Positions 3,101-39,359 of a DNA stretch of 61,423 nt are shown one piece after another (position 1 is the stretch's first letter; every line of letters starts with the position of its first letter). The stretch is from Kiritimatiellia bacterium. Lineage in GTDB: Bacteria > Verrucomicrobiota > Kiritimatiellia > RFP12 > UBA1067. The stretch lies in the NCBI GenBank assembly GCA_045641465.1, contig JAZUGW010000118.1, positions 1 to 61,423 on the forward strand, in the 5' to 3' direction. The notes under the pieces were generated by a model that worked only from the letters and a program-made list of their open reading frames with translations, did not search any database and had not been told where the DNA came from. The position numbers were made by a program, and so were the translations under genes.

Positions 3101-3968
3101 CGCTCAAACGGGAGTAGGCGCTCGCGCGAAGCCCCTCGAACGAACTCCAGTCGATCTCGCCTTTTTTCGTCGTCGCCGGCTGGAAGTTGCACACGGGCGA
3201 CTCCTGGCACGGGACATTGTTGTAGGTACAGCCTCTGTTCACGTACTCCACCGCATTCGTGGCGCCGAAGAACTGCACGATCGCCGCGCATGCCGTCGCC
3301 ACGCAGCCGCACACGGAATGATTCGGCGTGTAGTAGTTGTAGAGGTAGCCGCCGCTCGAACCCTGGCTCCAGTGCGTGAGCGGACCATTCCGCTCGAAGC
3401 CCTTCACCACGCACACTTCCATGTCGACGACATCGCGTCCCAGCGTTTCATCCTCCAGCAGCTTCGCCTTGCCGCCCAGACCCAGACGCGCCCACTTCTT
3501 CTCCTGCTGCAACGCCCATTCGGCCACACCCGCCGACCGACCGTCCGTTGCACCAGGCGCCACCGGGGCCACCGACTGCAGCCTCGCCGCACCATCCTCC
3601 TGGTAAAGGCCCAAGACTCGCAGACGCGCACGCATGTCGCGCCGCAGAATGCCCCGCAGCGGATGCGCCGCCGGCAGCTCGCCCGGATCGTTGTCGAGCG
3701 CCGCCACCACTGGTTCGATCTCCGTCACCGGCGCCACGATCACGCAGCCGTCGCCCGTCATCGAAACCTGGTGCCACAGCACCGTCTCGGCCTTGTTCGT
3801 GTCACGCACCGTGATCACCTTGCCCGTCGCCGCACGGCCCGCGCCGAACTTCTCGTTGCGCAAAACCCATGCGTTCGCGGCGGCGACCGCCATTTCAGAC
3901 GACACCGACTCGGCGCAGGCGCCAAGCGCCAACGCTGCAGCAATCAACGTTAAAATGCTTCTTTTCAT
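165..3968 (-). CDS. Large secreted multidomain peptidase, C10 (streptopain/SpeB) family, with an N-terminal Spi-type propeptide-like region
   Basis: ORF 165..4016. ATG at 3968 gives signal peptide MKRSILTLIAAALALGACA. Catalytic-Cys context CGCVATACAAIVQFF and catalytic-His context ESHSVVCVGYG match the C10 family. About 800 further residues of beta-rich domains follow. Confidence 0.85.
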   Translation of the reverse strand: MKRSILTLIAAALALGACAESVSSEMAVAAANAWVLRNEKFGAGRAATGKVITVRDTNKAETVLWHQVSMTGDGCVIVAPVTEIEPVVAALDNDPGELPAAHPLRGILRRDMRARLRVLGLYQEDGAARLQSVAPVAPGATDGRSAGVAEWALQQEKKWARLGLGGKAKLLEDETLGRDVVDMEVCVVKGFERNGPLTHWSQGSSGGYLYNYYTPNHSVCGCVATACAAIVQFFGATNAVEYVNRGCTYNNVPCQESPVCNFQPATTKKGEIDWSSFEGLRASAYSRLSDEQREIIGRVAYNAAVGVTMHWSDDESGAIEENIVTALKKVFGFKEARFINLRDTQQPWNSETYRKLIYGQCAAGAPVGISIESHSVVCVGYGQDYDGVERVRIFMGWGGSGDGWYALPMVDTKATMGGSSYVSEIVDGIVTMISWKDSRVVPVVGQVKNNKGEQVADAELTFLNVVDTIEEVIPGEPTGEEAEGEEPAPTINRSYVLRKLTTTENGWFGTRVPAVPGVYKFTCAGKMAEYEVGEACVKSTNEKTLARELPEWFNPFPLLNSTVCFRFETAVKTALEEGKAILRISGISGETNTQQVLDEIFKQDLENKDDFTNHFVYYFTTSSATNGDVCPSYGVLLPKDSKEESRWYFTNGRLAYGYGRTVTTTNEFTVTNVLDVAKIEDSEEDESSTTNSVPVTNIVTAVGTNLLISTYAPSGSEGVYGLFTLWPEYDATIPDSFKESVDAVIAAGWDEFTKQGSEISWTVRTESGLTAGEVVPAWGTTTGCYTNGQTVVATASFELTNEVVGVVMGVGGYTLSCSNLYSNVVTEQTGSGSEVSYTVSAGDQCTLTWNMVTNYVRITVGTPSPKASAGTTEPGTGWYKYGEDVLFTAKPAERWTVERWNGATEKGLPEGFSAGGPCVLVRAYEPMELNVKFRQQTTAEQKAEGTNYLFKVVSYTLDVDEDGQITGLNEVTDLTAMPKMKIYGGTEETEGTEIVQGEEATLPNAQLALVPSPLTYKDRRGRTWECYIWNFYGYEDDETLAHDAGVIGEAAKGEGFALAAGSGPVVGLTPSQDVKLVLYWVQVENRDEPDDPPVVKVDIPIDWNEELDNLHSGEVEILSAAEAKKLPPNAQITVGEPPLGWKLDGAVKKGKDGSLTATLVLDENVLAPKAVEGAAAPITIIPAEEGKLLVKAEIANGVRGFWYSLFTADELTGPWDVVTSGYESGTPVKQAALKESTGSFSLSILVDPTETKRFYKLVVTEKNPSAE

Positions 3969-4080
3969 GCCAACTTCCCCGTTTGAAAACAACACGGTCA
4001 TGGTGAAAGTGTACACTTCCCCATGAAAATTTACTGTACATTATACACGATTTTGAGGAAAAACGGAATGGGAAAATGAG

Positions 4081-4237: not shown

Positions 4238-4699
4238 CTAGAGCCCTTCACGGGCCATGTCGCGCTTGAGCGCCTTCTGCTTGAGCGTGTCGCGCTTGTC
4301 GTGCAGCGCCTTGCCGCGGCACACGCCCAGCTCGAGCTTGATGCGCCCCTTTTTCAGATAAAGACGCAGCGGAATCAGCGTGAGCCCCTTCGCCTCGGTC
4401 TTGAGCCGCAGCTCTTCGACTTCCTTCTTGTGTACGAGGAGACGGCGATTGCCCTGCGGCGAATGGTTGAACCGGTTGCCGAAGGCGTACACGGGGATGT
4501 TCATCGCCACCACGTAGAGCTGCCCCCCCAATACGGCCCCGTACGCCCCGGACAAGGATGCCTCCCCGTGGCGCACCACTTTCACCTCGGTACCACGCAA
4601 CTCAATGCCGCACTCGATCTTCTCGAGCACGGCATAGTCGTGATACGCACGGCGATTGACCGCAAAGTCACCCGGCGCTGTTTTCTTCTTCTCCGCCAC
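4238..4699 (-). CDS. smpB: SsrA-binding protein SmpB
   Basis: 153 aa, NRRAYHDYAVLEKIECGIELRGTEVK...LLVHKKEVEELR...LIPLRLYLKKGRIKLELGVCRGKALHDKR is typical SmpB. GTG start at 4699 is preceded by GGGGGA. Confidence 0.95.
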   Translation of the reverse strand: MAEKKKTAPGDFAVNRRAYHDYAVLEKIECGIELRGTEVKVVRHGEASLSGAYGAVLGGQLYVVAMNIPVYAFGNRFNHSPQGNRRLLVHKKEVEELRLKTEAKGLTLIPLRLYLKKGRIKLELGVCRGKALHDKRDTLKQKALKRDMAREGL

Positions 4700-5098: not shown

Positions 5099-5166
5099 TT
5101 GAAAAGTTAAAGATTGAAAATTAAAGATTAAAGGTTGGATTAAAGGTTGAAGGTTAAAGATTGGGG
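5099..5166. repeat. Heptanucleotide tandem array B: about 9-10 units, consensus RTTRAAR, with one 5-nt phase slip
   Basis: ttgaaaa gttaaag attgaaa attaaag attaaag gttggat(taaag) gttgaag gttaaag attgggg, in the divergent rpoZ/hrpA intergenic region. Confidence 0.85.
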
Positions 5167-5229
5167 ACGGTAATTCTGTCATTCTGTTCAAACCCGCCCG
5201 CGGATTTAGAACAGGACGGCAGAATTCAT

Positions 5230-5258
5230 TTGATGGGAATGGGCGATTATGCTATTAT
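5230..5258 (+). promoter_or_regulatory. Candidate sigma70-type promoter for hrpA
   Basis: TTGATG (5230..5235), 17-nt spacer, TATTAT (5253..5258), about 30 nt upstream of the ATG at 5290. Confidence 0.4.
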
Positions 5259-5289
5259 TAGCGCCTTTTCTGTCTGTGCTGAGCCCACT

Positions 5290-8200
5290 ATGTCGACATA
5301 CGTTCCATATCCCGACGCCGAACTTCCGGCGATCGACTACGCCTACCCGCCCGAACTGCCCGTGACGGCCCACCGCGACGAAATCCTCGCCGCACTCGCC
5401 CGTCACCCGGTTGTCATCGTCTGCGGCGATACCGGCAGCGGCAAAACGACCCAGCTGCCGAAAATGGCGCTGGAGGCCCTCGGCGCGTACGGACGCGTCG
5501 CCTGCACCCAGCCCCGCCGTCTCGCCGCCGTCACGATGGCCGCCCGCGTGGCCCACGAACTGAAAGGCGAAGTCGGCGCCCTTGTCGGCTACCAGCACCG
5601 TTTCGCCCGCCAGGTCTCGCGCGAAACCCGCATCAAGTTCATGACGGACGGCGTCCTGCTCGCCGAAACGCGGACGGACCCCCTTCTGCGCGCCTACGAC
5701 GTGATCATCGTCGACGAGGCCCACGAACGATCCCTCAATGTGGACTTCCTGCTCGGCATCCTCACCCGCATCCTGCGCCGCCGCCGCAACCTCAAGGTGA
5801 TCGTCTCGTCCGCCACGCTCGATGTCGCCCACTTTTCGGACTTCTTCGGCCACGCACCCGTCATTTCCGTACCGGGACGCCTCTTCCCGATCGACATCCA
5901 GTACCGCCCGCCCCGCGAGGACGACGAACTGGACCTCCCGCGCGACGTCGCCACCGCCGTTGCCACCCTGCCCCCCAAGGACGACATCCTCGTCTTCCTC
6001 CCGGGCGAACGCGACATCCGCGAAACGGCCGACGCCTTGTCGCGTCTCCGCACGAACGACGAGATCATCCCCCTGCTTGCCTCCCTCCCGGCTGCGGAAC
6101 AGCAGCGCGCCTTCCGCCTTTCCGCCCGGCGCCGCATCATCCTCGCCACCAACGTGGCCGAAACATCCGTCACCATCCCGGGCATCCGCTGTGTCATCGA
6201 TTCGGGACTCGCCCGCATCTCGCGCTACATCCACCGCACGCAGGTCCAGCGCCTGCAGATCGAACCCGTCTCCCAGGCGTCGGCCCGCCAGCGCGCCGGT
6301 CGTTGCGGACGCCTCGGTCCCGGCATCTGCATCCGCCTCTATTCCGAAGAGGACTTCAACACCCGCGACGCCTACACGCCGCCGGAGGTCCTGCGCGCCT
6401 CGCTCGCCGGCGTCATTCTGACGATGCTCGACCTGCGTCTCGGCGACGTCGAACGCTTCCCGTTCCTGGACCCTCCCCGTCCCGCCATGATCCACGAGGG
6501 CCTGCGCGAACTGCTCGAACTCGGCGCCATCGCCCATCTGCGCATCAACAGCGCCGCGCGCGATCCGCACGATCCGGACCGTCCGCCCGAGACCGAGACG
6601 CGCGTCGTTCTCACCGAGATCGGACGCAAACTCGCCCGCATCCCCATCGAGCCGCGTCTCGCACGCATGCTCCTCGCCGCCTCGGACAACGCCATTCTCC
6701 CCACGACTCTCCCGCTCGTCGCCGCCCTCGCGTGCGACGATCCGCGGCGCCGTCCCGTCGACGCGCGCGAACAGGCCGCCCAGGCCCACGCTCCGTTCCG
6801 CGTCCCCGGCTCCGACTTTCTCGGCACGCTGAAGCTCTGGACCTGGTGGCAGACGCAAACAGCCGAACTTTCCCAGGCGAAAGCACGCGCCCTCGCCAAG
6901 CGCACCTATCTTTCCTACCCGAAGATGCGCGAATGGCGCGACCTCGTGCGCCAGCTGACGGATCTGTCGAAGCAGCTGCGCCTCTCGTTCTCGGAAACGG
7001 TCGGCGCCAAGCAGGACGACACCTCGGCCCGTCTCCACAAGTCGCTTCTGACGGGCCTTCTCGGGCGCATCGGACGCTTCGACCCCGAGGAACGCAACTA
7101 CCGCGGCGCCCACGGGCTCCGCTTCTTCCTGCACCCGGGCTCGGTTCTGACGAAAAAGGACAAGCGCGCGTCCTCACCGACTCAGCCGCGTCCCGTCAAC
7201 GCCCACGCGCCGAAACCGCAGGCCGCCACCGCCTACCCGCCCTGGGTGATGGCGGGCGAACTCGTCGATACGGCCCGCCTTTTCGCCCGTCAGGCCGCCA
7301 CGCTCGATCCCGCCTGGATCGAACCCGTCGCCGGCGCTCTCTGCAAGCACAGCTACCACTCGCCCGAATGGGATCCGCAAAGCGGCTTCGTGCGCGCGAC
7401 CGAGCAGGTGGTGCTCTACGGACTCGTCATCGTCCCTGCCCGCCGCTGCGACTTCAGCCGCGTGAACCTGCCGCTCGCACGCGAGATCTTCATTCGCCAC
7501 GCGCTCGTGCTGGGCGACTTGCCGCATCCGCCGCCCGAAGGGCGCGCGAACGAGGCCCTGCTCGACGCCCTTCGCCGCCGCGCCGAAAAGGCGCGTCGCC
7601 CCGAACTCTTCGACGCCGAACGCCTCGTCGCGCACTTCGCCTCGGTGCTGCCGCCCGAGGTCGCTTCCGCACCCGCCTTGCGCAAGTGGCTCGCCCGAAC
7701 GGACAACGCCACACGCGCACGCTTCCGGCTGAAGAAGTCCGACTGGTGGCTCGAAGCCGATCTGAACGAGACGGACTTTCCAGACGCGATCCGCGTCGGC
7801 GGCGTGAAGATGTCGCTTTCCTATCTCAATACGCCCGACGATCCCGAGACGGACGGCATCACCTGCACGGTCCGCAAATCCGACGCCGCCGCCCTGCGCC
7901 TCTGGCGCGCCGATTGGCTCGTGCCGGGCGCCCTGCCCGAGAAACTCGCCTATCTGATTTCGACCTTGCCGTCGGCCCAGCGGCGCGTGCTCACGCCGAT
8001 CAGCGATACGGTGAGCGGACTCCTCGCCCACCTGAAGCCCGGGTCCGAACCGCTTGTGGACGCCGTGCGCCACACGATCTACGAGCAATGGGGCTTCGTC
8101 ATCCCGGCCGAAGCGTGGCAGACGCTCGACCTGCCGCCGCATCTGCGCGTGCGCTTCTGCATCCGCGATGACGCGAATGGACGCATCCTCGCCTGTTCGC

Positions 8201-9147
8201 GCGATCTCGATGCGGCGCTCACAGCAGCCGGCATCTCCACGACAGCCGCCCATGCGCATCCGCGCGCCGTCGTGCGCGTCACCGAGGACGCAAGCGACTT
8301 CTGGCCCTTCGGCACATTGCCGAAAAAGACGACCGACGCGCGAGCCGGCTGGGCGCTGGAACACTTCCCCGCACTTCACGACGACGGACCCGACAAAGGC
8401 GTGTCGCTGCAGCTGTCGGCCGATGCCGAAACTGCCGCCGCCGTGCATGCCGCCGGCGTGACGCGGCTCTGCCTGTTCGCCCTCGGGGAACGGGCGCGCA
8501 TTCCCTTCCGCCGCAAGTCGCTGCCGTTCGGCGCCCAGCTCTATCTCAAGTCGCTCAACTATGCCGACGAGCAAATCGCAAAGGACATCCTCGCCGGCGC
8601 CACGCGCGAAGCGTTCGTCCGCAACCAGCCGCCGATCCGCGACGCCGCCACCTTCGACCAGCGCCTCAAGCTCAAACGCAACGCCCTCGTCGAGACGCAG
8701 ATGGAAATGGCGAAGATCCTCGGCGAAGCCTATGCGTGCGCGGCGGAAATCGACAGCGCACTCGACGAGCTGAACGAGACGACCGCCGGCGCGATTCGCA
8801 CACAGCTCGCGTGGCTGCTCTATCCGGGCTTTCCGAAGAACGTGCCGCTCGCGCGTCTGCGCCACTACGCCCGCTACCTCAAGGGTGCGGCACGACGGGT
8901 CGAACGCGCGCGCACAAACCCCGCCGGCGATGCAACCAAAGAGGCGCTTTTCGCCCCCTACTGGATTCTCTACACGGATGCCGTACAGGGCAAGTCGTCC
9001 GTCAAGTTCGCACCGAAACCCCTCGCCGAATTCCGCTGGATGCTCGAGGAATATCGCGTCTCGCTCTTCGCCCAGGAACTCCACACGCCCGAACCCATCA
9101 GTCCCAAACGCCTCGACGCCAAACTCGCCGAAGCCGCAATCGACTGA
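5290..9147 (+). CDS. hrpA: ATP-dependent RNA helicase HrpA (DEAH-box)
   Basis: Walker A GDTGSGKTTQLP, DEAH box IIVDEAHERS, SATLD and QRAGRCGR motifs, plus the long HrpA-type C-terminal region. The ATG at 5290 (MSTYVPYPDAE) is preferred over the ORF-track start at 5161. Confidence 0.93.
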   Translation: MSTYVPYPDAELPAIDYAYPPELPVTAHRDEILAALARHPVVIVCGDTGSGKTTQLPKMALEALGAYGRVACTQPRRLAAVTMAARVAHELKGEVGALVGYQHRFARQVSRETRIKFMTDGVLLAETRTDPLLRAYDVIIVDEAHERSLNVDFLLGILTRILRRRRNLKVIVSSATLDVAHFSDFFGHAPVISVPGRLFPIDIQYRPPREDDELDLPRDVATAVATLPPKDDILVFLPGERDIRETADALSRLRTNDEIIPLLASLPAAEQQRAFRLSARRRIILATNVAETSVTIPGIRCVIDSGLARISRYIHRTQVQRLQIEPVSQASARQRAGRCGRLGPGICIRLYSEEDFNTRDAYTPPEVLRASLAGVILTMLDLRLGDVERFPFLDPPRPAMIHEGLRELLELGAIAHLRINSAARDPHDPDRPPETETRVVLTEIGRKLARIPIEPRLARMLLAASDNAILPTTLPLVAALACDDPRRRPVDAREQAAQAHAPFRVPGSDFLGTLKLWTWWQTQTAELSQAKARALAKRTYLSYPKMREWRDLVRQLTDLSKQLRLSFSETVGAKQDDTSARLHKSLLTGLLGRIGRFDPEERNYRGAHGLRFFLHPGSVLTKKDKRASSPTQPRPVNAHAPKPQAATAYPPWVMAGELVDTARLFARQAATLDPAWIEPVAGALCKHSYHSPEWDPQSGFVRATEQVVLYGLVIVPARRCDFSRVNLPLAREIFIRHALVLGDLPHPPPEGRANEALLDALRRRAEKARRPELFDAERLVAHFASVLPPEVASAPALRKWLARTDNATRARFRLKKSDWWLEADLNETDFPDAIRVGGVKMSLSYLNTPDDPETDGITCTVRKSDAAALRLWRADWLVPGALPEKLAYLISTLPSAQRRVLTPISDTVSGLLAHLKPGSEPLVDAVRHTIYEQWGFVIPAEAWQTLDLPPHLRVRFCIRDDANGRILACSRDLDAALTAAGISTTAAHAHPRAVVRVTEDASDFWPFGTLPKKTTDARAGWALEHFPALHDDGPDKGVSLQLSADAETAAAVHAAGVTRLCLFALGERARIPFRRKSLPFGAQLYLKSLNYADEQIAKDILAGATREAFVRNQPPIRDAATFDQRLKLKRNALVETQMEMAKILGEAYACAAEIDSALDELNETTAGAIRTQLAWLLYPGFPKNVPLARLRHYARYLKGAARRVERARTNPAGDATKEALFAPYWILYTDAVQGKSSVKFAPKPLAEFRWMLEEYRVSLFAQELHTPEPISPKRLDAKLAEAAID

Positions 9148-9208: not shown

Positions 9209-12200
9209 CTAACGCACGAACACCGTGAAGCCGCGGAAGATGTAGAGACCATCGGTCTCGACAACCACCGAACAACGCGAAGCGCGCGTGGCACCAAACT
9301 TGACGGCTGGGATTTCATCCCACGCCATCAACCGCTCATTGTTCCGTACGTGACGTGAACCAAGATGAATCTGGATGGTGGTCGTCTCCTCGGCGTATTT
9401 CAGTGACTGTCCCTGCAGTTCGGTCGTCCGCGCGCTGAAGTCAATGCACGCGCCATCGAGCAACTGACACGGATAGAACGTATCCGTCACGGGTGTAAAT
9501 GTCTGCGCGACGCGCATCACCCCTTCACCAGCCAGCGCCTTGTCGGCCGGCTGCTGACTCGTATACCCGCCGAGAAGGATGTCCGAACAGCACACCGTGA
9601 GCGCGACATCGCGAATCTCAAGCGTGGTCGTTTCCGCATGGACATTGTGCGTCGACGCCGAGGCAGACGAATTGCCCAAATAGAAGAGACCGCCACCGCG
9701 CACGACAATCTTACCACCGCCTGTCACCGTGAGGTTGCCCATGTAGATCCCCTTCGAGCCCGCCGTCACGAGGTCCAACTGATGTCCGTTCATCTCAAGT
9801 GTACCCTGCGCCCAACCCGCGCCGACGAATCCCGCGCCATCGCAAATGATCGTCGAGTCCGCCGTCAACGCAACCTGCTGCAACCAATCGTATCCCTGCT
9901 GACTGCGGTTCGTCGTACTCTTGATCGTGCCACCCGCGAGTACGAAGCGCTCCAGACTCTGATTACCGTAGCCATCGAAGTCCACGGTTCCTTCCGGATC
10001 GATCGTGACATCGCCGCCGAAGCCGAAGAACGTCCCCGTACCCGCGAGCGCACGACGCACGGTGCCCTCGCGAATCTCCGTGCCACCGAGATAGGCCTGA
10101 TCGTTCTTTGCAAGCAGCAGCGTGCCCGCACCTTCCTTCACGAACTTCAGCGAGCCCTTCAGCAGAAGCGTTTCGGACCGCACCTCGGTATCTTCGGGCA
10201 CATCCAGATGGACCTCGCCCGCCGGACGTGCCGAGACGGCAGCCACAGGTTCGCCCGACAACGCCGCAGTACTGACGGTGCTCTCCGCCGTGAGGAACTC
10301 GCGCGTGCAGGTTTCATACAGGCCATACACGCCATCCGAGAGTCGCTTCGCCGGCACGAAGTTTCGCATGACCTTCAGGTTCTTCGAACGGATCTGGAAC
10401 GAATGGAGATCCATCTTCGCCCACGAGTTTCCATCGATGGAGAGGGTTCCCGTCTTACCGTTGTTCATACCGAAGATGATGAGCGAAAACAGGCCGTTGT
10501 CGTGTTTCGTTCCAGACACCGCCAAACTGCCACGGGTCAACCCATCGGCCGTCAACCAGCTGGCAGAAGTTTCGTTGCAGGTCAACGTCAGACGCTGGTT
10601 CGTCGGGAAATCAGTCGTCTTTTGGTAGGCATTCGCACGATGGTAGCTCACGTTCACAGCATCCTTATTGCCCGTGCAGAGGAAGAAGCTCGTGGCATTG
10701 TTAGCGTTACTGCCATTGTTACGCGTACCGAACACCACAGGGTAGGTCTTCGCCTGCGGGAAGATCGGATTGAAGTCAACGATGAAGGTGTCATACGCCT
10801 GAAAGAGATAGTGCGTATCCACCACCTGACGGCCATCGGCCGAGACGTAGTCCACAAACACGAACTCTTCGTTGACGGTATCCATGAGCGTTCCCGTACC
10901 CGCCAGCTGGGAGAGGTAGAGTTTGTGTCCATTCAGATTGATCGTCGAATTGATCGGCTGCAAGAGTCCTCGCCAATCGCAATCACCGCCGAGTGTCGCC
11001 GGGAAGACGATGCTGCGGCACGTGAAGGATGCGCCCACCGGACAGTTGAACACGCACCCGTCCGGCAGATCGACGAGCGTCAAACCCGTCGGCAAAACGC
11101 CCGGCAACCGCGTACCCTCGCTATTTTCACAAATCCAGCACGCAGGATCGTCCACAGCCGATTCGTCCGTTCCAATCCACGTCGCGTGTACCGGCACGGA
11201 CGGATCGTCATAGCGCAGCATCAGCGCACCCCCGCGAATCTCTGCAACCATTGAAGCTCCTTCAATGCGGATATTCGTAGGCCGACCGGAACCCGCCAAT
11301 CCCGAAGCGATGACCGCATACTCCCGTGTCAGGTCGGCCTCCGGATCAATCGTAACCGTCAACACAACAGGATTGTCCGCCGTCGCTTCCTCCAACACCA
11401 CCGAAGACGGCGCAAGGACATCGCAGCCCGTGGGCCCAATGTCGAACGTCAGATGCGCCCCGCCCTTCAGCGTGAGCGCCTGATCAATGCCGTAGGTCTT
11501 GGCCGTGCCATCCTGCAGCGAGAAATTACCACGATTCAAAGTGAGGGACGGGAAACGCGACGTGACACCGGACGCATCCACGCGATGAACACCCACCTTC
11601 TCGACGGCGGTCCAATTCTTGAGCAGGTCGTCCGTGAGCACGCCTTCATGGACACACAGCGTCGTCCCATTCGTCGTGTAGGCGCAGCCAAACCCAAAAT
11701 CGCCCGAGCTCGATTTCGCGTTGTTGTTGAACGACTGGCCCGTGATCAAATCGAAAAGCTTCACTTCACCATCCGCCATCCGATGCGGTTCGTAATCGTG
11801 CACAACCGTGCTATCCGACTTGACAATACGGAACGAATAGAGGTTGGCCGTCGCCCAGGAATTGCCGTCGAGTTCGCACCCATTCGCCGTACCCGTGTTG
11901 TTCAAACCGAAGATCACGATGGGGTTGTAGCCGCCCTCCTCTTTCGTCGGCGTCACACTGATTGATCCATTGACCTTTCCATCCATCGTCTGCCACGTCG
12001 CCTGGGTTGGTCCGCAGGTAAGGGTCATGCGCTTGTTCGCCGGGAAATTCCCCGAGCCGCCCGTGAAGTTCGTTCCGCCCGAGCGTGTATAGCCGGCTTT
12101 CGGCTCTGTCTTCGAGTTGCTGGACATGAAGAAACTCGTCGCATTCACCGAATTGTTTCCACTCTTGCGCGCACCGAAGATGTTCGGATAGATTTTCGCT

Positions 12201-13015
12201 TGAGGGAACACCGCCGTGAAGTCGGCAATGAACGTATCGTCAAAAGCATGGAGGTAGCCCGTGTTGATGGCCTGCGTACCCGTCGCGGACATGTAGTCGA
12301 CTAGCGTTTCCTCCTCCTCGACGTCCGAACCAAACAGACGGCGCGTCCCGCGATTCCCGTGGAACTTGCCTTCGACTTCATCCCACAGCCCCGCTTCGCC
12401 ATCTGCGTATCGCCGACACGGAATGAATGAACGGCGCACCGTGCCATCCCCTCCGGTAATCTTAAACGAGTAGATCGTCGCACACGAGGGGGAGTTGCCA
12501 TCGGGCGAAAAACCCGTCGCCGAGGTCACATTGTTCAGACCGAAAATCATCAACGAACTGTTTCCACCTTCGTGCTTCGTCGGCGTGATCTCGACACGGC
12601 CGGTCTGTTCACCCCCGGCCGTGGCCCAAGCCACACCCGTTTCCGTGAACGTCATCGTTACGCGCTGATCCACCGGGAAGCCTTCCAAAAGGCCATTCGT
12701 GCCGTCACGATAATAGCGAACGGTCGGCGTTGTTTTGGAGTTCGCTGCGAGGAACAAGGCAATCGCATGATCAGTATTGTTGCCCTTGCGCGTACCGAAG
12801 AGATTGGCATACGTCCGCGTCTGCGGAAAGTTCACACTACAGTCGACTTCGAAAATATCGTCGGCCGCAAACACATACTCCGCATCGAGGTATTGGTACC
12901 CTGTCGCCTGAATCCACTCGAGACGCGCATATTCGCTCGGCAGCGGAATCAGATCACCCCACGCGGACCCCAGCGTCAGCAGCCCGACAATCACCATTCC
13001 AGCAAACTTTTTCAT
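9209..13015 (-). CDS. Large secreted protein: three copies of a ~195-aa module followed by autotransporter-associated beta-strand (PATR-type) repeats
   Basis: ATG at 13015 (MKKFAGMVIVGLLTLGSAWG) is preceded by GAGGAAAAGG; the ORF-track start at 13030 is a TTG. Modules at roughly 12335..12934, 11720..12301 and 10286..10858 share Y(I/M/V)xAxGxQ...FGxR...IFG(L/M)NN...YSF(K/R)I...GL(W/Y/F)D. KFVKEGAGTLLLAKNDQAYLGGTEIREGTV is PATR-like. Confidence 0.85.
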   Translation of the reverse strand: MKKFAGMVIVGLLTLGSAWGDLIPLPSEYARLEWIQATGYQYLDAEYVFAADDIFEVDCSVNFPQTRTYANLFGTRKGNNTDHAIALFLAANSKTTPTVRYYRDGTNGLLEGFPVDQRVTMTFTETGVAWATAGGEQTGRVEITPTKHEGGNSSLMIFGLNNVTSATGFSPDGNSPSCATIYSFKITGGDGTVRRSFIPCRRYADGEAGLWDEVEGKFHGNRGTRRLFGSDVEEEETLVDYMSATGTQAINTGYLHAFDDTFIADFTAVFPQAKIYPNIFGARKSGNNSVNATSFFMSSNSKTEPKAGYTRSGGTNFTGGSGNFPANKRMTLTCGPTQATWQTMDGKVNGSISVTPTKEEGGYNPIVIFGLNNTGTANGCELDGNSWATANLYSFRIVKSDSTVVHDYEPHRMADGEVKLFDLITGQSFNNNAKSSSGDFGFGCAYTTNGTTLCVHEGVLTDDLLKNWTAVEKVGVHRVDASGVTSRFPSLTLNRGNFSLQDGTAKTYGIDQALTLKGGAHLTFDIGPTGCDVLAPSSVVLEEATADNPVVLTVTIDPEADLTREYAVIASGLAGSGRPTNIRIEGASMVAEIRGGALMLRYDDPSVPVHATWIGTDESAVDDPACWICENSEGTRLPGVLPTGLTLVDLPDGCVFNCPVGASFTCRSIVFPATLGGDCDWRGLLQPINSTINLNGHKLYLSQLAGTGTLMDTVNEEFVFVDYVSADGRQVVDTHYLFQAYDTFIVDFNPIFPQAKTYPVVFGTRNNGSNANNATSFFLCTGNKDAVNVSYHRANAYQKTTDFPTNQRLTLTCNETSASWLTADGLTRGSLAVSGTKHDNGLFSLIIFGMNNGKTGTLSIDGNSWAKMDLHSFQIRSKNLKVMRNFVPAKRLSDGVYGLYETCTREFLTAESTVSTAALSGEPVAAVSARPAGEVHLDVPEDTEVRSETLLLKGSLKFVKEGAGTLLLAKNDQAYLGGTEIREGTVRRALAGTGTFFGFGGDVTIDPEGTVDFDGYGNQSLERFVLAGGTIKSTTNRSQQGYDWLQQVALTADSTIICDGAGFVGAGWAQGTLEMNGHQLDLVTAGSKGIYMGNLTVTGGGKIVVRGGGLFYLGNSSASASTHNVHAETTTLEIRDVALTVCCSDILLGGYTSQQPADKALAGEGVMRVAQTFTPVTDTFYPCQLLDGACIDFSARTTELQGQSLKYAEETTTIQIHLGSRHVRNNERLMAWDEIPAVKFGATRASRCSVVVETDGLYIFRGFTVFVR

Positions 13016-13016
13016 C

Positions 13017-13044
13017 GTCCTTTTCCTCAAGTCCTTTTCCTCAA
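13017..13044. repeat. Perfect 14-nt tandem duplication covering the Shine-Dalgarno region of the 9209..13015 gene
   Basis: GTCCTTTTCCTCAA occurs at 13017..13030 and again at 13031..13044. On the minus strand this reads TTGAGGAAAAGGAC x2, then G, then ATG. Confidence 0.8.
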
Positions 13045-33720: not shown

Positions 33721-36700
33721 CTAGCGCAACAGAAAAATCGTTCCCGATGGGACCTGCGTCACCAGCGCATAATTGCGCCCCAGCACCGTTCCCGACGAAT
33801 TATAGGCGATAAAAGCCACACAGTTGGGTTCGCCTACGGCCGCCGTGAACGCCTCCGCGGGGATTTCCGCATCGAAAAGGCCGCTCGTGGGCGCCTTCTT
33901 GTCGAAGACGCGCCATCCGTTCACAAACACCGAAACGCCCGTCACCGAGGTCCCGCCCGGCCGGAAGGTCGTCCGCAACGGACGGCCCGTGTAGAGCGTC
34001 TGGTTCCCGTTCAACCCCGAGAATGCAATCGGCAGACGCGACTTGTCGGCCGTGTAGTATTTCGTACACGAACTCTGCTGCACGCTCGCCATCAGCGTCT
34101 CGACGCTTGCGAACTGACGGTCGAGCCACGGGAGACGCTGCGTGAGAAAGGTCACCAGCCGCGAGACATCCGCCTCGAAATTGCCCGCACCCTTGTTGTA
34201 GTCGGTGTTCCACTTGATCGAGTTCGCATGGCACGCCTCGACGAGCCGGTTCGTGTAGGTGGCAATGAGTCCGTCGGACCCGAGGAGGCGCGCAAACTGG
34301 TCGCGCACCTGCCAATAGCGCGTATAGAGGCGCGTGCAGAATTCCGGATTGTCCGTCCACTCTTTGTAGACGGCATCCGCCACCTTGTCGCTCGCGCTCT
34401 GGCATTTCCAACCCGTACCATCCGCCGACACGCGCGGACTTCCCACGCCCCAGTCGAAGTCCCACACCGGGCCCCACACGAGCTTACCGCCTTGGTCTTT
34501 GTACGCATAGCGGCTCTTCTTGACGGCATCGCAGTTGCCGAAGAGCTCCATCACAAGCCAGTAGTTGACCATCGATTCGAAGTCGCAGTAGTCGCCGATG
34601 TACTTGCCTTCTTTCGAATAGCCGTCCACGCTCGTACAGGCGTCCCAATAGTTCTGGAAGAACGTCTTGCAGTAGTTCAGCATCGTACTGTTGGAATTCA
34701 GATACTCCGGCGATTTGAGCATCGTCTTCACGCCGAGCACCCCCGACGACGTCGTGAACTTCGTGAGCTCGTCATATTCCTCCGAGAACTCGAAGAGATA
34801 TCCGCCCGAAATATCCTGCGTGAACGACTCGTACACCTCCGAGGGACGTCCCGTGAGCGTCACCCGGTTCGTCGCATCGTAGAAGGAGAACGAATCGCTT
34901 GTCACCCAGGTGAAATTCTGCTCGAGCTGCGTCGCCAGCGTCTCCGCCTGGTCGTCCGTGAGCCCGTGCGCCGCCGCAAATGCCTCCGCAATGCCGTCGG
35001 CGTCTTCTTCCCAGTCGTGTATGTCCACACGGTCGCCCGCAATGCGGATGTGCTCGCAGAACTGATAGGTGCCCTGCCACGCGCCGTTCAATACGCACTC
35101 GACCCAGGTGGACTTCATCCCCAGCGAACCGATCTCGTTCGCGAAATCGTACGCAAGCTTGTTGCGCAGCATGGACTGGTCATTGTAGTTCGCCAAGAGC
35201 ACCCAGTGCTTCGACTTCGGGATGTCGAACATCTTCGTCTTTTTGTCGAGCTTGATCTTCCACGGCTTTTTCGGATACGAGGCCGTCGAATTGCCGCGCA
35301 CCTTGATCGTCATCTTGCCGTCATAGAGCGACTTCCAGTCGTCGTTGCCCTGCGCATAGAGCGTACCCGTGTGCTCCTCTTTGCTCTTCGACGGCGTCGC
35401 ATGGTCGTCCGTCGTCAGATAGATCACGGGCAGACGCGAGAAGAAGAACTCTTTTTCGAGCACCTTCTTTTCGCCGTCTTTCGCCACAACCTTGATCCAA
35501 TGCTCCAGGTCGCTCGCCGTCGGCTTGTACGAACCCGTCTTCGCAAACGGCGTCGACGCGTAGTTTTTGTCCGCCCCGGCACGCGTCCACGCAAAGGAAT
35601 AGGTGGGCGCCAGACCGAAGAGCGTACCGTAGGTCGCCGTCAGCGCCTTGCCGATCCGAGGACGCGACACGTCGAGTTCAAGTTCGGTCTTGACGCGCCC
35701 GCCCATCATGTACGCACCGTCGTCCGAAAAACCGACGAGCAGGTCTTTCACGGTTCCGTTCTCCTCGCCGCGCGTCAACGCCACTTCACCGTCGACGACC
35801 GCCAGGTCGCCCGCCTGAGCCGGCGCCGCTTCGGCCGTCGCGCCATCGACCGTCCAATTCGCAGCCGTATTCCAATCGCCTTCGTCGCCGCCGACCCAGC
35901 GATAGACACGCAACGGTTCGCCTGCGTCCTCCTGTCCGGAAAAATCGGAGAAGCGCCCGCTTCCCGTGAACGACACGGACGAAATCCCGGCCGACGTCTG
36001 TGAAGGCCGCGTGCGGAACCAGGTCGCGCCCGCCTTGTTCGCCAGCCGCACCCACGTGTCGTCCTTCTTGACGAGATAGCTCACGAGCCGCAGATTTTCC
36101 ACCGTGCGCAACTCGATGCGTCCGTCGATCCACGTGCCTTCCTGCGGCGTCACGCCCTCACCCGTCAGCTCGATCCAGCCATCCGCCGTGAATCCGTTGA
36201 AACCCACCTGCCCACCAGAAAGAAGCGCGGGAGAGAGTCCCGCCGCGCCGTCAAAATCCTCGATGTCGATACCGCCCAGCCCTTCGGCGTAAAGCGAAAA
36301 GTCGATGCGCTCCACCTCGCCCCCCGTCGGCGCGACGGGCTTGAATGTCACCTCTGTCGTGCTCTCCGTGTCAATGGCAATGCCGTTGCGAACACCGTCG
36401 AAAACATTCGTCACCACCGTACCCGCCGCCAGCGGCTGCCACGCGCCGCCGGTCGTTCCGACGGACGAGAGCGTTTCGCCCGTCGTGTAATCCCGGAACG
36501 TCGCCCCGAACCAGTCCCGCGCGGCCGCCTGCGCACCGCCCGCCAACAGGAATGCGCACACGACAAGCAGACGGCGCACAACCTTCATCGCCTGCGCCGG
36601 ACAATAGTTCGCGCACGCGCCGCAGCCCGTGCATTTCTCTTTCTCGATCACCGGCAGCTGAACCTTCTCGTTCTTGTCGCCGATCTTGATCTCTTCTTCC

Positions 36701-38004
36701 TTCAACGTGATCGCCTGGCTTGGACACCGCCGCGCGCACAGTCCGCACGACATCTTCTCCTTTTCCGTGCACACAAGACACGCGGCACGGTCATAGGTCG
36801 CCACGCCGACCTTCCACGCCGCTTTCGCCTTCGCTTCGAGCGGACGCAGCGCCCCCGTCGGACACACCTCGCTGCACACCGTGCAGTTCGGATCGCAGAA
36901 CCCGTGCGTGAAATCCATCTTCGGCAGCATGAACCCGAGCGGACCATACGCCGAGAATCCCGCTGGCACGAGCACCTTGCGCGGACACTTCGCCACGCAG
37001 AGGCCGCACCCCGTACAGAGACGGCGGAACCGGTCCGGATCCGCCCCGGGCGGCGGCAGCGTGTCCTTCGGCCACGCACGCGTGTCGACGATGCACCGAC
37101 TGCTGCCCGTAGCCCCCACCACCGCCGAAGCGGTCGCCACCGCCGCAATGAACGCGCGCCGATCTTGATTCACCTCCGCCGACTTCGCCGCAGGACGCGC
37201 CGCCGTGAAGGAGATCGCACCCTTCGGACACACCCCCGCGCAGTCGAAACACCGCACGCAGCGCGCGTTGTCCACCATCTGCTTCGCGCCGTCAAGACAG
37301 AGCGCCTTGCACACCGTCGAACAGCGTCCGCACTTCACGCACTTCGCCGAATCGATCACCAGGCGGAACACCGTCTTTTTCGACAGCACCCCCAGCATCG
37401 CCCCTACCGGACAGACCGTGTTGCACACCAGCCGCCCCTTCCACGCGACCAGCAGAAACAACAACACCAGCGCACTCGCCGCCACGGCGAAACCCGAAAC
37501 GCTACGGATGAAGACCTCGCGCGTGAACAGCACGAACGGACCCTCCGTGCCCACAGTCGTCGCCACCCAGTTGTTCGCCCACTCCGCCACCGGCTGGAAG
37601 AGCGCCGAGGCGAGGCGTCCGAAAAGACTGTACGGATCGACAAGCCCCGCGAGCGCCGATCCGCCCAACACGACGAGCAGCGCGAAGACCAGCCCCGCCG
37701 CAAAGCGCACCATCGGACGATCCGGCCGCGGTGCAAACGTACGCCGCCCGAACACACGGGCCAGCCGTCCGAGAATATCCTGCAGAATCCCGAGCGGACA
37801 CACCATCGAGCAGTAGACACGCCCGAACAGCAATGTCGCCACAAGCCACGCAGCGAGCGGAATCGCCGCGCACCCGAGGAGCGCCGGCACGATCTGGATT
37901 TTCTCAAGGAGTCCGAACCCGCCGCCGAGCCCCAGGAAGAACAGCGTCACGAGCGTGAAAACGCACGCCGCCACAAGTACACGGAGAATCTTCAGCGCCT
38001 TCAT
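33721..38004 (-). CDS. Uninterrupted 1427-codon ORF: NapH-like membrane Fe-S module + NapG-like 4x[4Fe-4S] module + signal-peptide-like segment + lectin-like region + CotH kinase domain
   Basis: No stop codon between 38004 and 33721. The ATG at 38004 overlaps the AKR stop (ATGA). An internal in-frame ATG at 36588 opens MKVVRRLLVVCAFLLAGGAQAAA. Confidence 0.75.
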   Translation of the reverse strand: MKALKILRVLVAACVFTLVTLFFLGLGGGFGLLEKIQIVPALLGCAAIPLAAWLVATLLFGRVYCSMVCPLGILQDILGRLARVFGRRTFAPRPDRPMVRFAAGLVFALLVVLGGSALAGLVDPYSLFGRLASALFQPVAEWANNWVATTVGTEGPFVLFTREVFIRSVSGFAVAASALVLLFLLVAWKGRLVCNTVCPVGAMLGVLSKKTVFRLVIDSAKCVKCGRCSTVCKALCLDGAKQMVDNARCVRCFDCAGVCPKGAISFTAARPAAKSAEVNQDRRAFIAAVATASAVVGATGSSRCIVDTRAWPKDTLPPPGADPDRFRRLCTGCGLCVAKCPRKVLVPAGFSAYGPLGFMLPKMDFTHGFCDPNCTVCSEVCPTGALRPLEAKAKAAWKVGVATYDRAACLVCTEKEKMSCGLCARRCPSQAITLKEEEIKIGDKNEKVQLPVIEKEKCTGCGACANYCPAQAMKVVRRLLVVCAFLLAGGAQAAARDWFGATFRDYTTGETLSSVGTTGGAWQPLAAGTVVTNVFDGVRNGIAIDTESTTEVTFKPVAPTGGEVERIDFSLYAEGLGGIDIEDFDGAAGLSPALLSGGQVGFNGFTADGWIELTGEGVTPQEGTWIDGRIELRTVENLRLVSYLVKKDDTWVRLANKAGATWFRTRPSQTSAGISSVSFTGSGRFSDFSGQEDAGEPLRVYRWVGGDEGDWNTAANWTVDGATAEAAPAQAGDLAVVDGEVALTRGEENGTVKDLLVGFSDDGAYMMGGRVKTELELDVSRPRIGKALTATYGTLFGLAPTYSFAWTRAGADKNYASTPFAKTGSYKPTASDLEHWIKVVAKDGEKKVLEKEFFFSRLPVIYLTTDDHATPSKSKEEHTGTLYAQGNDDWKSLYDGKMTIKVRGNSTASYPKKPWKIKLDKKTKMFDIPKSKHWVLLANYNDQSMLRNKLAYDFANEIGSLGMKSTWVECVLNGAWQGTYQFCEHIRIAGDRVDIHDWEEDADGIAEAFAAAHGLTDDQAETLATQLEQNFTWVTSDSFSFYDATNRVTLTGRPSEVYESFTQDISGGYLFEFSEEYDELTKFTTSSGVLGVKTMLKSPEYLNSNSTMLNYCKTFFQNYWDACTSVDGYSKEGKYIGDYCDFESMVNYWLVMELFGNCDAVKKSRYAYKDQGGKLVWGPVWDFDWGVGSPRVSADGTGWKCQSASDKVADAVYKEWTDNPEFCTRLYTRYWQVRDQFARLLGSDGLIATYTNRLVEACHANSIKWNTDYNKGAGNFEADVSRLVTFLTQRLPWLDRQFASVETLMASVQQSSCTKYYTADKSRLPIAFSGLNGNQTLYTGRPLRTTFRPGGTSVTGVSVFVNGWRVFDKKAPTSGLFDAEIPAEAFTAAVGEPNCVAFIAYNSSGTVLGRNYALVTQVPSGTIFLLR
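34105..35436 (-). other. CotH (spore-coat protein H-type atypical kinase) domain, about aa 857-1300 of the fused ORF
   Basis: IKVRGNSTASYPKKPWKIKLDKK, WVLLANYNDQSMLRNKLAYDFA, VLNGAWQGTYQFCEHI and GPVWDFDWGVG match CotH-family hallmarks. Confidence 0.75.
36589..38004 (-). other. NapH-like (aa 1-270) plus NapG/MauM-like (aa 275-472) polyferredoxin portion
   Basis: Two membrane CxxxCP motifs (YCSMVCPLG, VCNTVCPVG). Ferredoxin motifs CVKCGRCSTVC, CVRCFDCAGVCP, CTGCGLCVAKCP, CTVCSEVCP, CGLCARRCP and CTGCGACANYCP. An internal Tat-like DRRAFIAAVATASAVVG. Confidence 0.7.
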
Positions 38005-39359
38005 CGGATCACCCCGCCTTTCTTGATGTACGTCGCTTCAGTCCGTGCGACAAGTTCGGAGATGTTTTCCATTTCCGTCGGAATGCGGAACGTCCATTGC
38101 GGACACGGCACAAGGCACTTACGGCACGCGATGCAACGATCCGCGCGCTCTTTGGCCTTGAACGTGTTGTAGTACGACGCCAGGAAACGCCGCCGCAGAT
38201 CCTGCGAATCGTTCGCACCTTCGTCCGCCGGCAGACGCCCGCTTTGCGCCCACGTGTTGTACCAGCGGAAGATCTCCGGAATCTTCACCCCGTACGGACA
38301 CGGCACGCAATATGCGCAGCCCGTGCACGGAAGCGTCTTGTACTTCATGTACTCGGCGATGGCCGCCTCGTACGTCTTGCGTTCATCGGGCGACAACGGC
38401 TTGAAATCTTCCGTGAGCGTCTCGATGTTCTCCTTGAGATACTCGAGCTTGCCCATGCCGCTGAACACGCAGGCGACGCCTGGAATCGACGCCGCAAAGC
38501 GGAACCCCCAGCGCGCCGGCGAATCTTTCGGATTCGCGCGCTTGAGAATCGCCAGCGACTCGCCGCTCAAACCGGCCGCGCGTCCGCCCGCCAGCGGCTC
38601 CATCACGAGAATGGCGACCTTGTGCTGCGCGGCGACTTCGGCGAGTTTGGGCGCATCCTTGTTCCAGCGGTACTCCATCGCATTCTGCATCACCATGCAG
38701 ACCTCGAAGACGCCCGGATACGTCTCCAGCAGCTCCTTGAGGTAGTCCGACTTCCCGTGGAAGGAAAGTCCGAGATGGCGGATGCGGCCCAGCTTCTTCT
38801 GCTCGCGCAGAAAATCCAGAACGCCGAGCTTCAGATAGACACGCTCGAATTCGGATTTGGTCCGAATCGAATGCAGCAGGTAGAAATCGAAATACGTGAT
38901 GTTCAGACGCTGGAGCTGCTCGTTGAAAATCCGCGGCGCGTCCTTCTCGCTCCTGACGAGCCAGGTCGGCATTTTCGTCGAAATCAGATAGCTGTCGCGC
39001 GGGTGCTTCTTGAGGACGCGCCCGAGGAAGGGTTCGCTCTTCCCGCGATGATAGCTGTAGCCCGTATCAATCCACGTCACGCCGTGCGCGAGGGCGAAAT
39101 CCACCATTTCCTCGGCGCGCGCCTCCATCGCCGCCTGGCCGGCGTCTCGCGTCCGCAGCGGAAAGCGCTCGGCGCAGCCCAACCCCAGAAGCGGAATCGG
39201 CGTCTTGCCATCCCCGATGAAAGGGCGCACGCGCGGCTTCGCCGTAAAGGGCGGTTCGACGGCGAAGAGATTCCCGGCGCCCAGACACAAACCCGCCGCC
39301 AGCGCCCCTTCGAGCGCACCGCGACGCGTGACAGGCAAAGGATTGGAGGACGTCTGCAT
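38001..39359 (-). CDS. Aldo/keto reductase with a C-terminal Fe-S (ferredoxin-like) domain and a Tat-like N-terminus
   Basis: PVTRRGALEGALAAGLCLGAGNLFA; AKR core (WIDTGYSYHRGKSE, FDFYLLHS, HLGLSFHG). C-terminal CTGCAYCVPCP and CIACRKCLVPCP. Confidence 0.86.
   Translation of the reverse strand: MQTSSNPLPVTRRGALEGALAAGLCLGAGNLFAVEPPFTAKPRVRPFIGDGKTPIPLLGLGCAERFPLRTRDAGQAAMEARAEEMVDFALAHGVTWIDTGYSYHRGKSEPFLGRVLKKHPRDSYLISTKMPTWLVRSEKDAPRIFNEQLQRLNITYFDFYLLHSIRTKSEFERVYLKLGVLDFLREQKKLGRIRHLGLSFHGKSDYLKELLETYPGVFEVCMVMQNAMEYRWNKDAPKLAEVAAQHKVAILVMEPLAGGRAAGLSGESLAILKRANPKDSPARWGFRFAASIPGVACVFSGMGKLEYLKENIETLTEDFKPLSPDERKTYEAAIAEYMKYKTLPCTGCAYCVPCPYGVKIPEIFRWYNTWAQSGRLPADEGANDSQDLRRRFLASYYNTFKAKERADRCIACRKCLVPCPQWTFRIPTEMENISELVARTEATYIKKGGVIR

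Follow-up and report, generated by a model that had tools for sequence, protein, structure and literature searches.

A CotH-family exoprotein in the same reading frame as a polyferredoxin

The locus described here lies on contig JAZUGW010000118.1 of a Kiritimatiellia bacterium (assembly GCA_045641465.1), whose whole stretch of 61,423 nucleotides (nt) was analysed and is called the window below. On the minus strand of the window, a single open reading frame (ORF) encodes a membrane-bound polyferredoxin followed by an exported protein with a lectin-like region and a CotH kinase-family domain (Table 1). No stop codon separates the upstream membrane protein from the downstream exported protein, and the same holds in independent assemblies. 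A first-pass annotation, made from the DNA letters alone, had described one unbroken ORF joining a redox part to an exoprotein, which is borne out by the 1427 open codons. It had also proposed that codon 473, the ATG at 36588 (36588..36586, minus strand), opens a signal peptide, in agreement with both its position and the alignment with stand-alone orthologues. A peptide predicted to cross the junction in an uncleaved product is LLVVCAFLLAGGAQAAAR. Neither half is new as a family, and NCBI nr already lists the fused protein, though only under the name 'CotH kinase family protein'. The novelty lies in the architecture, in which an Fe-S domain predicted to be exported by the twin-arginine translocation (Tat) system runs directly into a Sec-type signal peptide and a large exoprotein, and in its history: the fusion is fixed in one lineage and has a counterpart in an independent, still polymorphic fusion that links the same ferredoxin tail to another exported protein.

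Table 1. The fusion ORF, its parts and the adjoining features, with positions in the window (aa, amino acids; TMD, transmembrane domain; omega, ratio of non-synonymous to synonymous substitution rates; arrows, candidate cleavage sites).
Feature	Position	Strand	Remarks
Fusion ORF	33721..38004	minus	1427 aa, ATG start, no internal stop; stop codon at 33721-33723
NapH-like membrane module, aa 1-270	37195..38004	minus	Hydropathy and motif scan; Pfam Fer4_5 and Fer4_21; NCBIfam NapH best match, below cut-off
Twin-arginine motif (RRAFI, aa 282) and weakly hydrophobic TMD5 (aa 284-302)	37099..37161	minus	Arg303 and Arg309 lie downstream
NapG-like four-cluster module, aa 311-472	36589..37074	minus	Ends CPAQA; NCBIfam NapG/MauM best match, below cut-off; omega 0.08-0.15
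Junction codon ATG (Met473)	36586..36588	minus	Start codon in stand-alone CotH orthologues; also the conserved Met of the ferredoxin tail 'CPxHAMxV'
Putative retained Sec-type signal peptide MKVVRRLLVVCAFLLAGGAQAAA-RD, aa 473-497	36514..36588	minus	AxA sites AQA↓A and AAA↓R; aligns with stand-alone N-terminal signal peptides
Beta-rich exodomain region, aa 498-880	35365..36513	minus	ConA-like/L-type-lectin-like fold and further beta domains
CotH kinase-family domain and C-terminal beta domain, aa 881-1427	33724..35364	minus	Pfam PF08757; omega 0.12
Upstream aldo/keto reductase with C-terminal Fe-S domain and N-terminal twin-arginine signal	38001..39359	minus	Stop overlaps the fusion ATG by 4 nt (ATGA)
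Strain-variable 4.3-kb segment	29395..33719	minus	Begins right past the fusion stop; absent from loci L002 and L003

The ferredoxin half resembles dual Sec-Tat polyferredoxins

The first 472 residues had been read as a NapH-like module with two CxxxCP and two ferredoxin motifs, followed by a NapG-like four-cluster module with an internal Tat-like segment. Our motif scans recovered both modules. Four strongly hydrophobic TMDs were found by hydropathy scan at aa 9-27, 42-60, 104-122 and 169-187. The two NapH-type CxxxCP motifs lie at C65 and C194, and two CxxCxxCxxxC motifs at aa 222 and 249 correspond to the cytoplasmic [4Fe-4S] motifs of the NapH-like module. The twin-arginine stretch at aa 282, RRAFIAAVATASAVVG, belongs to an RR motif kept in both fused and unfused homologues, and the TMD5 associated with it has a 19-residue hydrophobicity sum of +4.0, as opposed to -0.3 to -2.3 for TMD1-4. 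Cluster motifs of the NapG-like module are located at aa 330, 370-381, 409-427 and 458, and Pfam recognises Fer4_5 and many Fer4 families as far as residue 473. The NapG (NF007012) and NapH (NF007013) pair gave the best NCBIfam models, yet with scores far under the curated cut-offs (70 versus 269 bits for NapG, 62.7 versus 234 for NapH), and we therefore refer to this half as NapH/NapG-like rather than as NapGH. It has the motif layout of the NapH/NapG quinol dehydrogenase subunits of periplasmic nitrate reductase, but carries both parts in one chain and is a homologue, not an equivalog. No nap genes were found near the fusion ORF, whose neighbours are an Fe-S aldo/keto reductase (AKR), Obg, and an ABC1-like gene.

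A family of polytopic polyferredoxins in which NapH and NapG are fused has been described and experimentally tested (Tooke et al., 2017, eLife 6:e26577; PMC5449189). In these proteins, such as the MLMS-1 polyferredoxin (MLMS-1 PFD), TMD1-4 are inserted by Sec, a weakly hydrophobic TMD5 with an RR motif in front of it and positive charges behind it fails to be integrated by Sec, and the NapG-like Fe-S domain remains cytoplasmic until it is post-translationally translocated by Tat (Tooke et al., 2017). The window protein shares with this system the four Sec-type TMDs, the two CxxxCP motifs, the cytoplasmic 2x[4Fe-4S] part, the twin-arginine motif placed directly before a weak TMD5 with positive charges, and the NapG-like four-cluster domain. 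It differs in two respects: the known dual Sec-Tat polyferredoxins end a few residues past the last cluster whereas the fusion continues for 955 aa, made up of a Sec signal peptide and an exoprotein of 930 aa, and its partner is a Tat-signal Fe-S AKR rather than a nitrate reductase. Such a partner would fit periplasmic electron transfer by the predicted NapG-like domain. The first-pass annotation had judged the topology hard to reconcile with a single chain; the internal twin-arginine segment is explained by the published polyferredoxin, but a Sec signal peptide placed directly after a domain expected to be exported by Tat is still odd.

The exported half carries an internal signal peptide and a CotH domain

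Residues 473-497, MKVVRRLLVVCAFLLAGGAQAAARD, are laid out like the n-, h- and c-regions of a Sec signal peptide, contain two AxA sites, and are homologous to the signal peptides of stand-alone CotH proteins, consistent with what had been proposed for codon 473 onwards. The predicted parts are the basic residues K474/R477/R478, then LLVVCAFLLAGGA, then a cleavage site AQA↓A or AAA↓R. The h-region spans only about 13-17 residues. Between the window and a diverged fused lineage (L007, see below) it differs at five positions and is still hydrophobic, and the c-region GAQAAARDW is identical.

The approximately 390 residues that follow the signal peptide were modelled by AlphaFold2 as all-beta, with a predicted local distance difference test (pLDDT) value of 89. 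Foldseek matches in the PDB include VIP36, ERGIC-53, legume lectins, SraP and BoNT Hc (E 1e-4 to 1e-2). As these matches to ConA-like and L-type lectins are weak, though consistent, we call the region lectin-like at the level of the fold only. The earlier description of about 380 aa of beta-rich, lectin-like sequence thus stands as to the beta structure, and as to the lectin likeness in this restricted sense. The CotH domain said to lie beyond it is present (PF08757 from aa 900, 123.7 bits versus a cut-off of 23.8, E 1.5e-35), and this part also has weak sequence similarity to the CotH structure 5JD9 (E 3.5e-5). The Pfam match far above threshold, and close orthologues annotated as CotH in metagenome-assembled genomes (MAGs) of Kiritimatiellae, align it with the CotH kinase family, represented by the Bacillus structures 5JD9 and 5JDA. 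It departs from this family in its much greater size, ConA-like and other beta domains of about 400 aa lying ahead of the CotH domain, and in a signal peptide that is internal and not N-terminal; its kinase activity is a prediction.

The fusion is shared by diverged lineages and constrained in both halves

At least eight distinct full-length fused sequences of 1425-1427 aa, from separate assemblies, belong to the window's 90%-identity cluster. One of them is available from NCBI as MCQ2393991.1, annotated 'CotH kinase family protein [Kiritimatiellae bacterium]'. Loci L002 and L003 carry fused orthologues of identical length with the same junction DNA, and the more distant L007 (about 80% DNA identity to the window, 77% aa identity in the ferredoxin half) has the same junction, CPAHAMKVVRRLLVLCAVVWTMGAQAAARDWFGATF. 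Each of the three fused sub-lineages retains Met473. The protein of L007 (P0006) meets an apparent stop 125 aa into the exoprotein; this follows a frameshift some 90 nt before the end of the contig, beyond which the similarity disappears, and we regard it as a contig-end artefact.

Comparison of the window with L002 gave omega values of 0.30 for the whole ferredoxin, 0.08 for its NapG-like part and 0.13 for the CotH part. With L007 they were 0.24 for the whole ferredoxin and 0.14 for the signal peptide together with the first exodomain. Pairs of unfused ferredoxins, taken as a baseline, range from 0.18 to 0.33 over the whole gene. No relaxation of selection on the fused ferredoxin is seen, its values of 0.24-0.30 falling inside this range. 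Both halves are under purifying selection. The genuine fusion, one of three options left open in the first-pass annotation, is hence supported by independent assemblies, by a lineage of about 80% identity and by purifying selection, and it represents a lineage-fixed, in-frame fusion in uncultured gut/rumen Kiritimatiellae.

Divergence between the window and L002 is uneven. The number of synonymous substitutions per site (dS) is 0.06 in the AKR, 0.09 in the NapH-like part, 0.19 in the NapG-like part and 0.12 in the CotH part, and aa identity is 99.8% in the AKR and 92.6% in the ferredoxin. This unevenness suggests mosaic recombination between strains.

In relatives the two halves are separate genes at different loci

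For the ferredoxin half we found more than 1800 relatives, the closest of which outside the fused lineage are 482-517 aa long with 69-70% identity. An exhaustive search of 1.84 billion representatives yielded 7223 relatives of this half, the best 150 of which are all 440-615 aa long. In 269 ferredoxin homologues, the median tail past the last cluster motif is 21 aa, and a passenger is carried only by P0006, itself a member of the fused lineage. The combination of a Tat-exported Fe-S domain, a Sec signal peptide and an exoprotein was not found among these 269 homologues or the top 150 family representatives. Tails in the Kiritimatiellae clade read 'CPxHA-M/L/F-x-V', followed by 2-15 mostly basic residues, and the junction Met is therefore itself a conserved ferredoxin-tail residue.

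Some tails of other kinds were also observed. The 517-aa polyferredoxin P0008 has an odd repetitive tail, WRIENGKCKMEMGDVKLKMENGENGKCKMETGDGKLKMENGK, past the ferredoxin end, which looks like read-through into a short tandem repeat. Many of the distant polyferredoxins P0286-P0432 share a C-terminal tail of about 36-50 aa ending in [DE]F[PG]F-COOH, which is absent from the Kiritimatiellae clade.

Stand-alone orthologues of the CotH half are 955-960 aa long and at most 74% identical to it over 99-100% of its length. Each opens with a signal peptide of its own, and the mature part behind it has the conserved start DWFG.SF. Because these proteins start at their own signal peptide at this very position, the ATG at 36588 is orthologous to their start codon. 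Upstream of the stand-alone CotH gene in L004 lies a divergent YgjP-like gene and downstream of it a 1372-aa ABC1/APH-like gene, and in L005 and L006 the gene order is AKR, ferredoxin, AsnC regulator. Among GTDB species representatives, every match spans either aa 1-475 or aa 476-1427, and no locus with both halves was present among these matches.

The first-pass annotation had asked whether a stop codon or a gap normally lies between the two halves in orthologues; they are not neighbours there and occupy different loci instead, the separate polyferredoxins being about 470-500 aa long. A simple stop loss between adjacent genes is ruled out by this arrangement, and the different locations of the ferredoxin and CotH genes in relatives argue for fusion by rearrangement. 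The junction 'ATG AAG GT' fits either parent: the unfused tail in L021 reads GCG ATG AAG GTA, and the CotH protein P0135 starts with MKV. Such a junction would be expected of a microhomology-mediated join. A scan of JGI metagenomes with the junction peptide returned one further unfused ferredoxin only, and no pre-fusion intermediate with adjacent yet separate genes was found in the database, locus and JGI metagenome searches. Taken together with its maintenance in diverged lineages, we consider it nearly certain that this is a real, maintained fusion produced by rearrangement.

A second fusion with an unrelated passenger

The 1014-aa protein P0002 (L001 and L024; cluster of 831 members) has a ferredoxin 65% identical to that of the window, joined at the same point to an unrelated passenger, a beta-helix protein (PF13229). 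In a neighbour-joining tree, P0002 falls in a distant clade amid unfused proteins, and the CotH-fused clade is sister to the unfused P0007, P0008 and P0009. We also considered that the hydrophobic segment behind the ferredoxin could derive from a shared ancestral C-terminal transmembrane helix. This was rejected: unfused close relatives have short basic tails with no hydrophobic segment, the window segment is homologous to CotH signal peptides, and the tree splits the two fused clades.

An unfused allele (L017), 98.2% identical in DNA up to about codon 476, ends in ALKVRGIP and a stop codon. The fused beta-helix allele reads ALKVRG-AALVCACAALLSC and continues into a passenger that has no start codon and retains an h-region and the lipobox LLSC. 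Junction and LLSC are kept in all of the 12 fused beta-helix variants, and between L001 and L024, 13 codons differ synonymously and 5 non-synonymously. A third allele (L008, L009) corresponds to the fused gene less an in-frame block, joined at the 5-nt microhomology GCGCT. The ferredoxin 3' end of the beta-helix lineage is a recurrent rearrangement breakpoint.

Four allele states at this 3' end coexist within about 98% DNA identity (L001, L017, L008/L009 and L010). Unfused alleles end either in KVRGIP-stop or in TIRGI-stop, the latter followed by DUF805 and zinc-ribbon genes. The passenger-deleted allele with the GCGCT microhomology also lacks a 1461-aa PATR gene.

In both fusions the point of joining falls exactly at the signal peptide of an exported passenger, and the n-region of this signal peptide comes from the basic ferredoxin tail. 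Such a pattern would be expected if merging were tolerated only where a signal-peptide cleavage site can re-separate the products.

The internal ATG has the context of an ordinary internal codon

A nested gene was among the options raised in the first-pass annotation. CotH would then be made mainly by initiation at ATG 36588, and the read-through fusion would be a degraded or tolerated by-product. The ATG is indeed the orthologous start of the 955-960-aa stand-alone CotH genes, and Met473 is kept in three of three fused sub-lineages. However, Met is also the commonest residue at that position in unfused ferredoxin tails, which makes its conservation uninformative on initiation. The context of ATG 36588 was compared with those of 19 confident starts in the window and of 196 ordinary in-frame internal ATGs. 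In the 20 nt upstream, its A content is 15% versus 35% for the confident starts, and its GC content 65% versus 44%; the local folding energy is -19.1 kcal/mol, versus -9.0 +/- 4.0 kcal/mol. ATG 36588 thus has a GC-rich and structured surrounding with no A-rich leader, and it lies in the middle of the distribution of the 196 internal ATGs.

Scans for promoter-like, terminator-like or Rfam RNA elements at the junction and upstream of 36588 remained at background. In contrast, the stand-alone CotH genes have TGnTATAAT-like (extended -10-like) boxes 10-35 nt upstream of their starts. Boxes were observed at L004 around nt 808-867 (TGATATAAT), at L013 around nt 4403-4462 (TGCTATAAT) and at L014 around nt 1030-1089 (TGATATACT). 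With neither a start-like context nor a promoter-like site at ATG 36588, independent initiation is unsupported. On the other hand, no clear Shine-Dalgarno sequence was seen at the stand-alone CotH starts in L004, L013 and L014, a context that hints at short-leader expression in these Kiritimatiellae. Since these orthologues seem to do without a Shine-Dalgarno sequence, demands on initiation may be low, and the weak-looking context at 36588 would still be compatible with it.

Two further observations argue against a nested gene. At the equivalent codon the beta-helix fusion has CTG, and its passenger has no start codon of its own. Moreover, with no stop in between, all ferredoxin would still be made in fused form, under normal purifying selection; because the ferredoxin is normally constrained and no stop codon ends it, the read-through product must be handled productively. 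A programmed +1 frameshift to the TGA in 'ATGAAG' was also considered; this TGA is a by-product of xTG-AAG that occurs in unfused tails too, and no slippery or stimulatory frameshift motif was seen at the junction. Overall, the orthology of the ATG to the CotH start favours a nested gene, whereas the ordinary context and the lack of a promoter-like site do not, and we regard it as unlikely. With the two parts uninterrupted by a stop codon and the internal ATG devoid of start-site features and of its own promoter, every ribosome making ferredoxin would read on into CotH, and the main product is probably a 1427-aa read-through precursor rather than a separately initiated CotH.

A precursor that may be split at the retained signal peptide

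From these data we propose the following scenario. A rearrangement joined the last codons of the polyferredoxin gene to the first codons of a gene for a secreted, lectin-like CotH protein, and the basic ferredoxin tail (…CPAQA-M-K-V) now also forms the n-region of the signal peptide of CotH. During translation, TMD1-4 would enter the membrane co-translationally via Sec, and the twin-arginine TMD5 and the NapG-like domain would remain on the cytoplasmic side. The retained signal peptide would next engage Sec with its N-terminus inside, and the CotH part would be exported. Signal peptidase I would then cleave after AQA or AAA and set free a native-like mature CotH exoprotein. The polyferredoxin would keep a short hydrophobic C-terminal remnant, and Tat would finally export the NapG-like domain. 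An order of Sec before Tat is plausible, as the NapG-like domain, although finally expected in the periplasm, stays cytoplasmic until Tat export (Tooke et al., 2017). The fusion would be tolerated because one gene would yield two proteins. We give a splitting of the precursor at the signal peptide a probability of about 0.5.

Several points weigh against this scenario. The NapG-like domain is expected to be periplasmic, and an N-in/C-out remnant at its C-terminus conflicts with its export by Tat; to our knowledge, there is neither an experimental precedent nor a model for a signal-peptide remnant during Tat export. The putative signal peptide at aa 473-497 is assigned by inspection and homology, and the conservation of the AxA region is known from two diverged fused lineages only. 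Purifying selection on both sides fits an uncleaved tether or a CotH initiated at the internal ATG equally well. Finally, the stand-alone CotH orthologues seem to use short leaders with no clear Shine-Dalgarno sequence, in a phylum whose start features are poorly known.

The closest precedent that we know of is FbcH of Bradyrhizobium japonicum, a cytochrome b-c1 precursor polyprotein reportedly described by Thony-Meyer et al. in 1991. It is said to combine a polytopic redox membrane protein, an internal signal peptide and an exported protein in one stop-free ORF. Its two products are reportedly subunits of one complex, and the C-terminus of the upstream protein is said to be cytoplasmic. By contrast, the halves of the window protein are functionally unrelated, its upstream domain is itself bound for Tat export, and its cleavage is only inferred.

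Alternatively, the fusion could be uncleaved and functional, the former signal peptide serving as a sixth transmembrane segment or linker that tethers a lectin-like CotH kinase to the membrane redox module. Such a tether could couple a kinase or adhesin function to the quinone pool, or merely act as an anchor. This would agree with both halves being in frame across about 20% DNA divergence and with a junction segment that varies in sequence and stays hydrophobic. Tat can moreover integrate C-terminal anchors of Fe-S proteins, as in the small subunits of hydrogenases and formate dehydrogenases. However, an h-region of about 13-17 residues is more like that of a signal peptide than like a transmembrane segment, and the cleavage-site region is retained (AQAAA here, lipobox LLSC in the second fusion). 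In addition, a periplasmic NapG-like part followed by one span would put CotH in the cytoplasm, unlike its signal-peptide-bearing orthologues, and the K/R residues would then face the periplasm. The two independently acquired passengers, CotH and beta-helix, are unrelated, which points to tolerance of any exported passenger rather than to a specific redox-kinase coupling. Finally, fused, unfused and passenger-deleted beta-helix alleles coexist within about 98% identity, and the linkage therefore seems dispensable. We consider an uncleaved functional fusion improbable.

The weakest explanation, an assembly or sequencing artefact or a pseudogene recently inactivated through a lost stop or frameshift and without a biological product, might be suggested by the window being a MAG contig and by the frameshift in L007, albeit so near a contig end, but it is effectively refuted by the same junction recurring in different samples and with different assemblers as well as in the lineage of about 80% identity, by 1427 open codons with omega values of 0.13-0.30, and by the non-adjacency of the halves in relatives, where one lost stop would not suffice.

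The fusion probably reflects an accident that is tolerated, not a new functional system. It is conceivable, if rather doubtful, that the protein is a natural 'Sec → Tat → Sec' substrate and that signal peptides act as built-in, self-cleaving linkers allowing genes to merge with no loss of function, as suggested by two independent fusions of one ferredoxin tail to unrelated passengers with signal peptides. If so, one chain would undergo co-translational Sec insertion, deferred Tat export of the folded four-cluster domain, and Sec export with cleavage of the passenger. Large exoproteins might gain from a ribosome already docked at the translocon. A precursor split in this way would be a rare bacterial case of one gene giving two proteins, and a natural substrate for studying the handover of a nascent chain between Sec and Tat. 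The recurrence of fusion and the coexistence of fused and unfused alleles also offer a natural experiment on how operons become polyproteins. For annotation, the lesson would be that this 1427-aa 'CotH' consists of two functional units, and that a 'redox-regulated kinase' deduced from it is probably wrong.

Gene neighbourhood

The AKR and polyferredoxin genes adjoin in every lineage examined (including L001, L002, L005, L010 and L017-L021), and they form a conserved two-gene module, probably of a periplasmic reductase fed by a quinol-oxidising polyferredoxin. In this module the AKR gene comes first and has the ATGA overlap with the ferredoxin gene, and its product carries an N-terminal twin-arginine signal, TRRGALEGALAAG. 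Locus L020 (CAVEVC010000112.1), titled 'Clostridiales bacterium CCNA10', carries an AKR-polyferredoxin pair of the Kiritimatiellae type (71% and 62% identity) and a run of N, and is likely a case of bin contamination or mislabelling.

On the other side of the fusion ORF, the strain-variable segment harbours a gene at 29410..33654 (minus strand) for a 1414-aa coiled-coil protein with an ABC1/APH kinase-like domain (Pfam ABC1). In L002 and L003, which are about 95% identical to the window, 48 nt stand in place of the whole 4.3-kb segment. The 1372-aa gene that follows the stand-alone CotH gene in L004 is a homologue of this kinase-like protein (49% identity), and CotH and the giant kinase-like gene may form a conserved pair.

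Other very large proteins are encoded in the window at 165-4016 (minus), 9209-13030 (minus), 57219-61040 (minus) and 5161-9147 (plus). The large proteins of the window include a 1283-aa Peptidase_C10 protein, a 1273-aa protein with a weak PATR repeat, a 1273-aa protein with no Pfam match, and an HrpA-like helicase.

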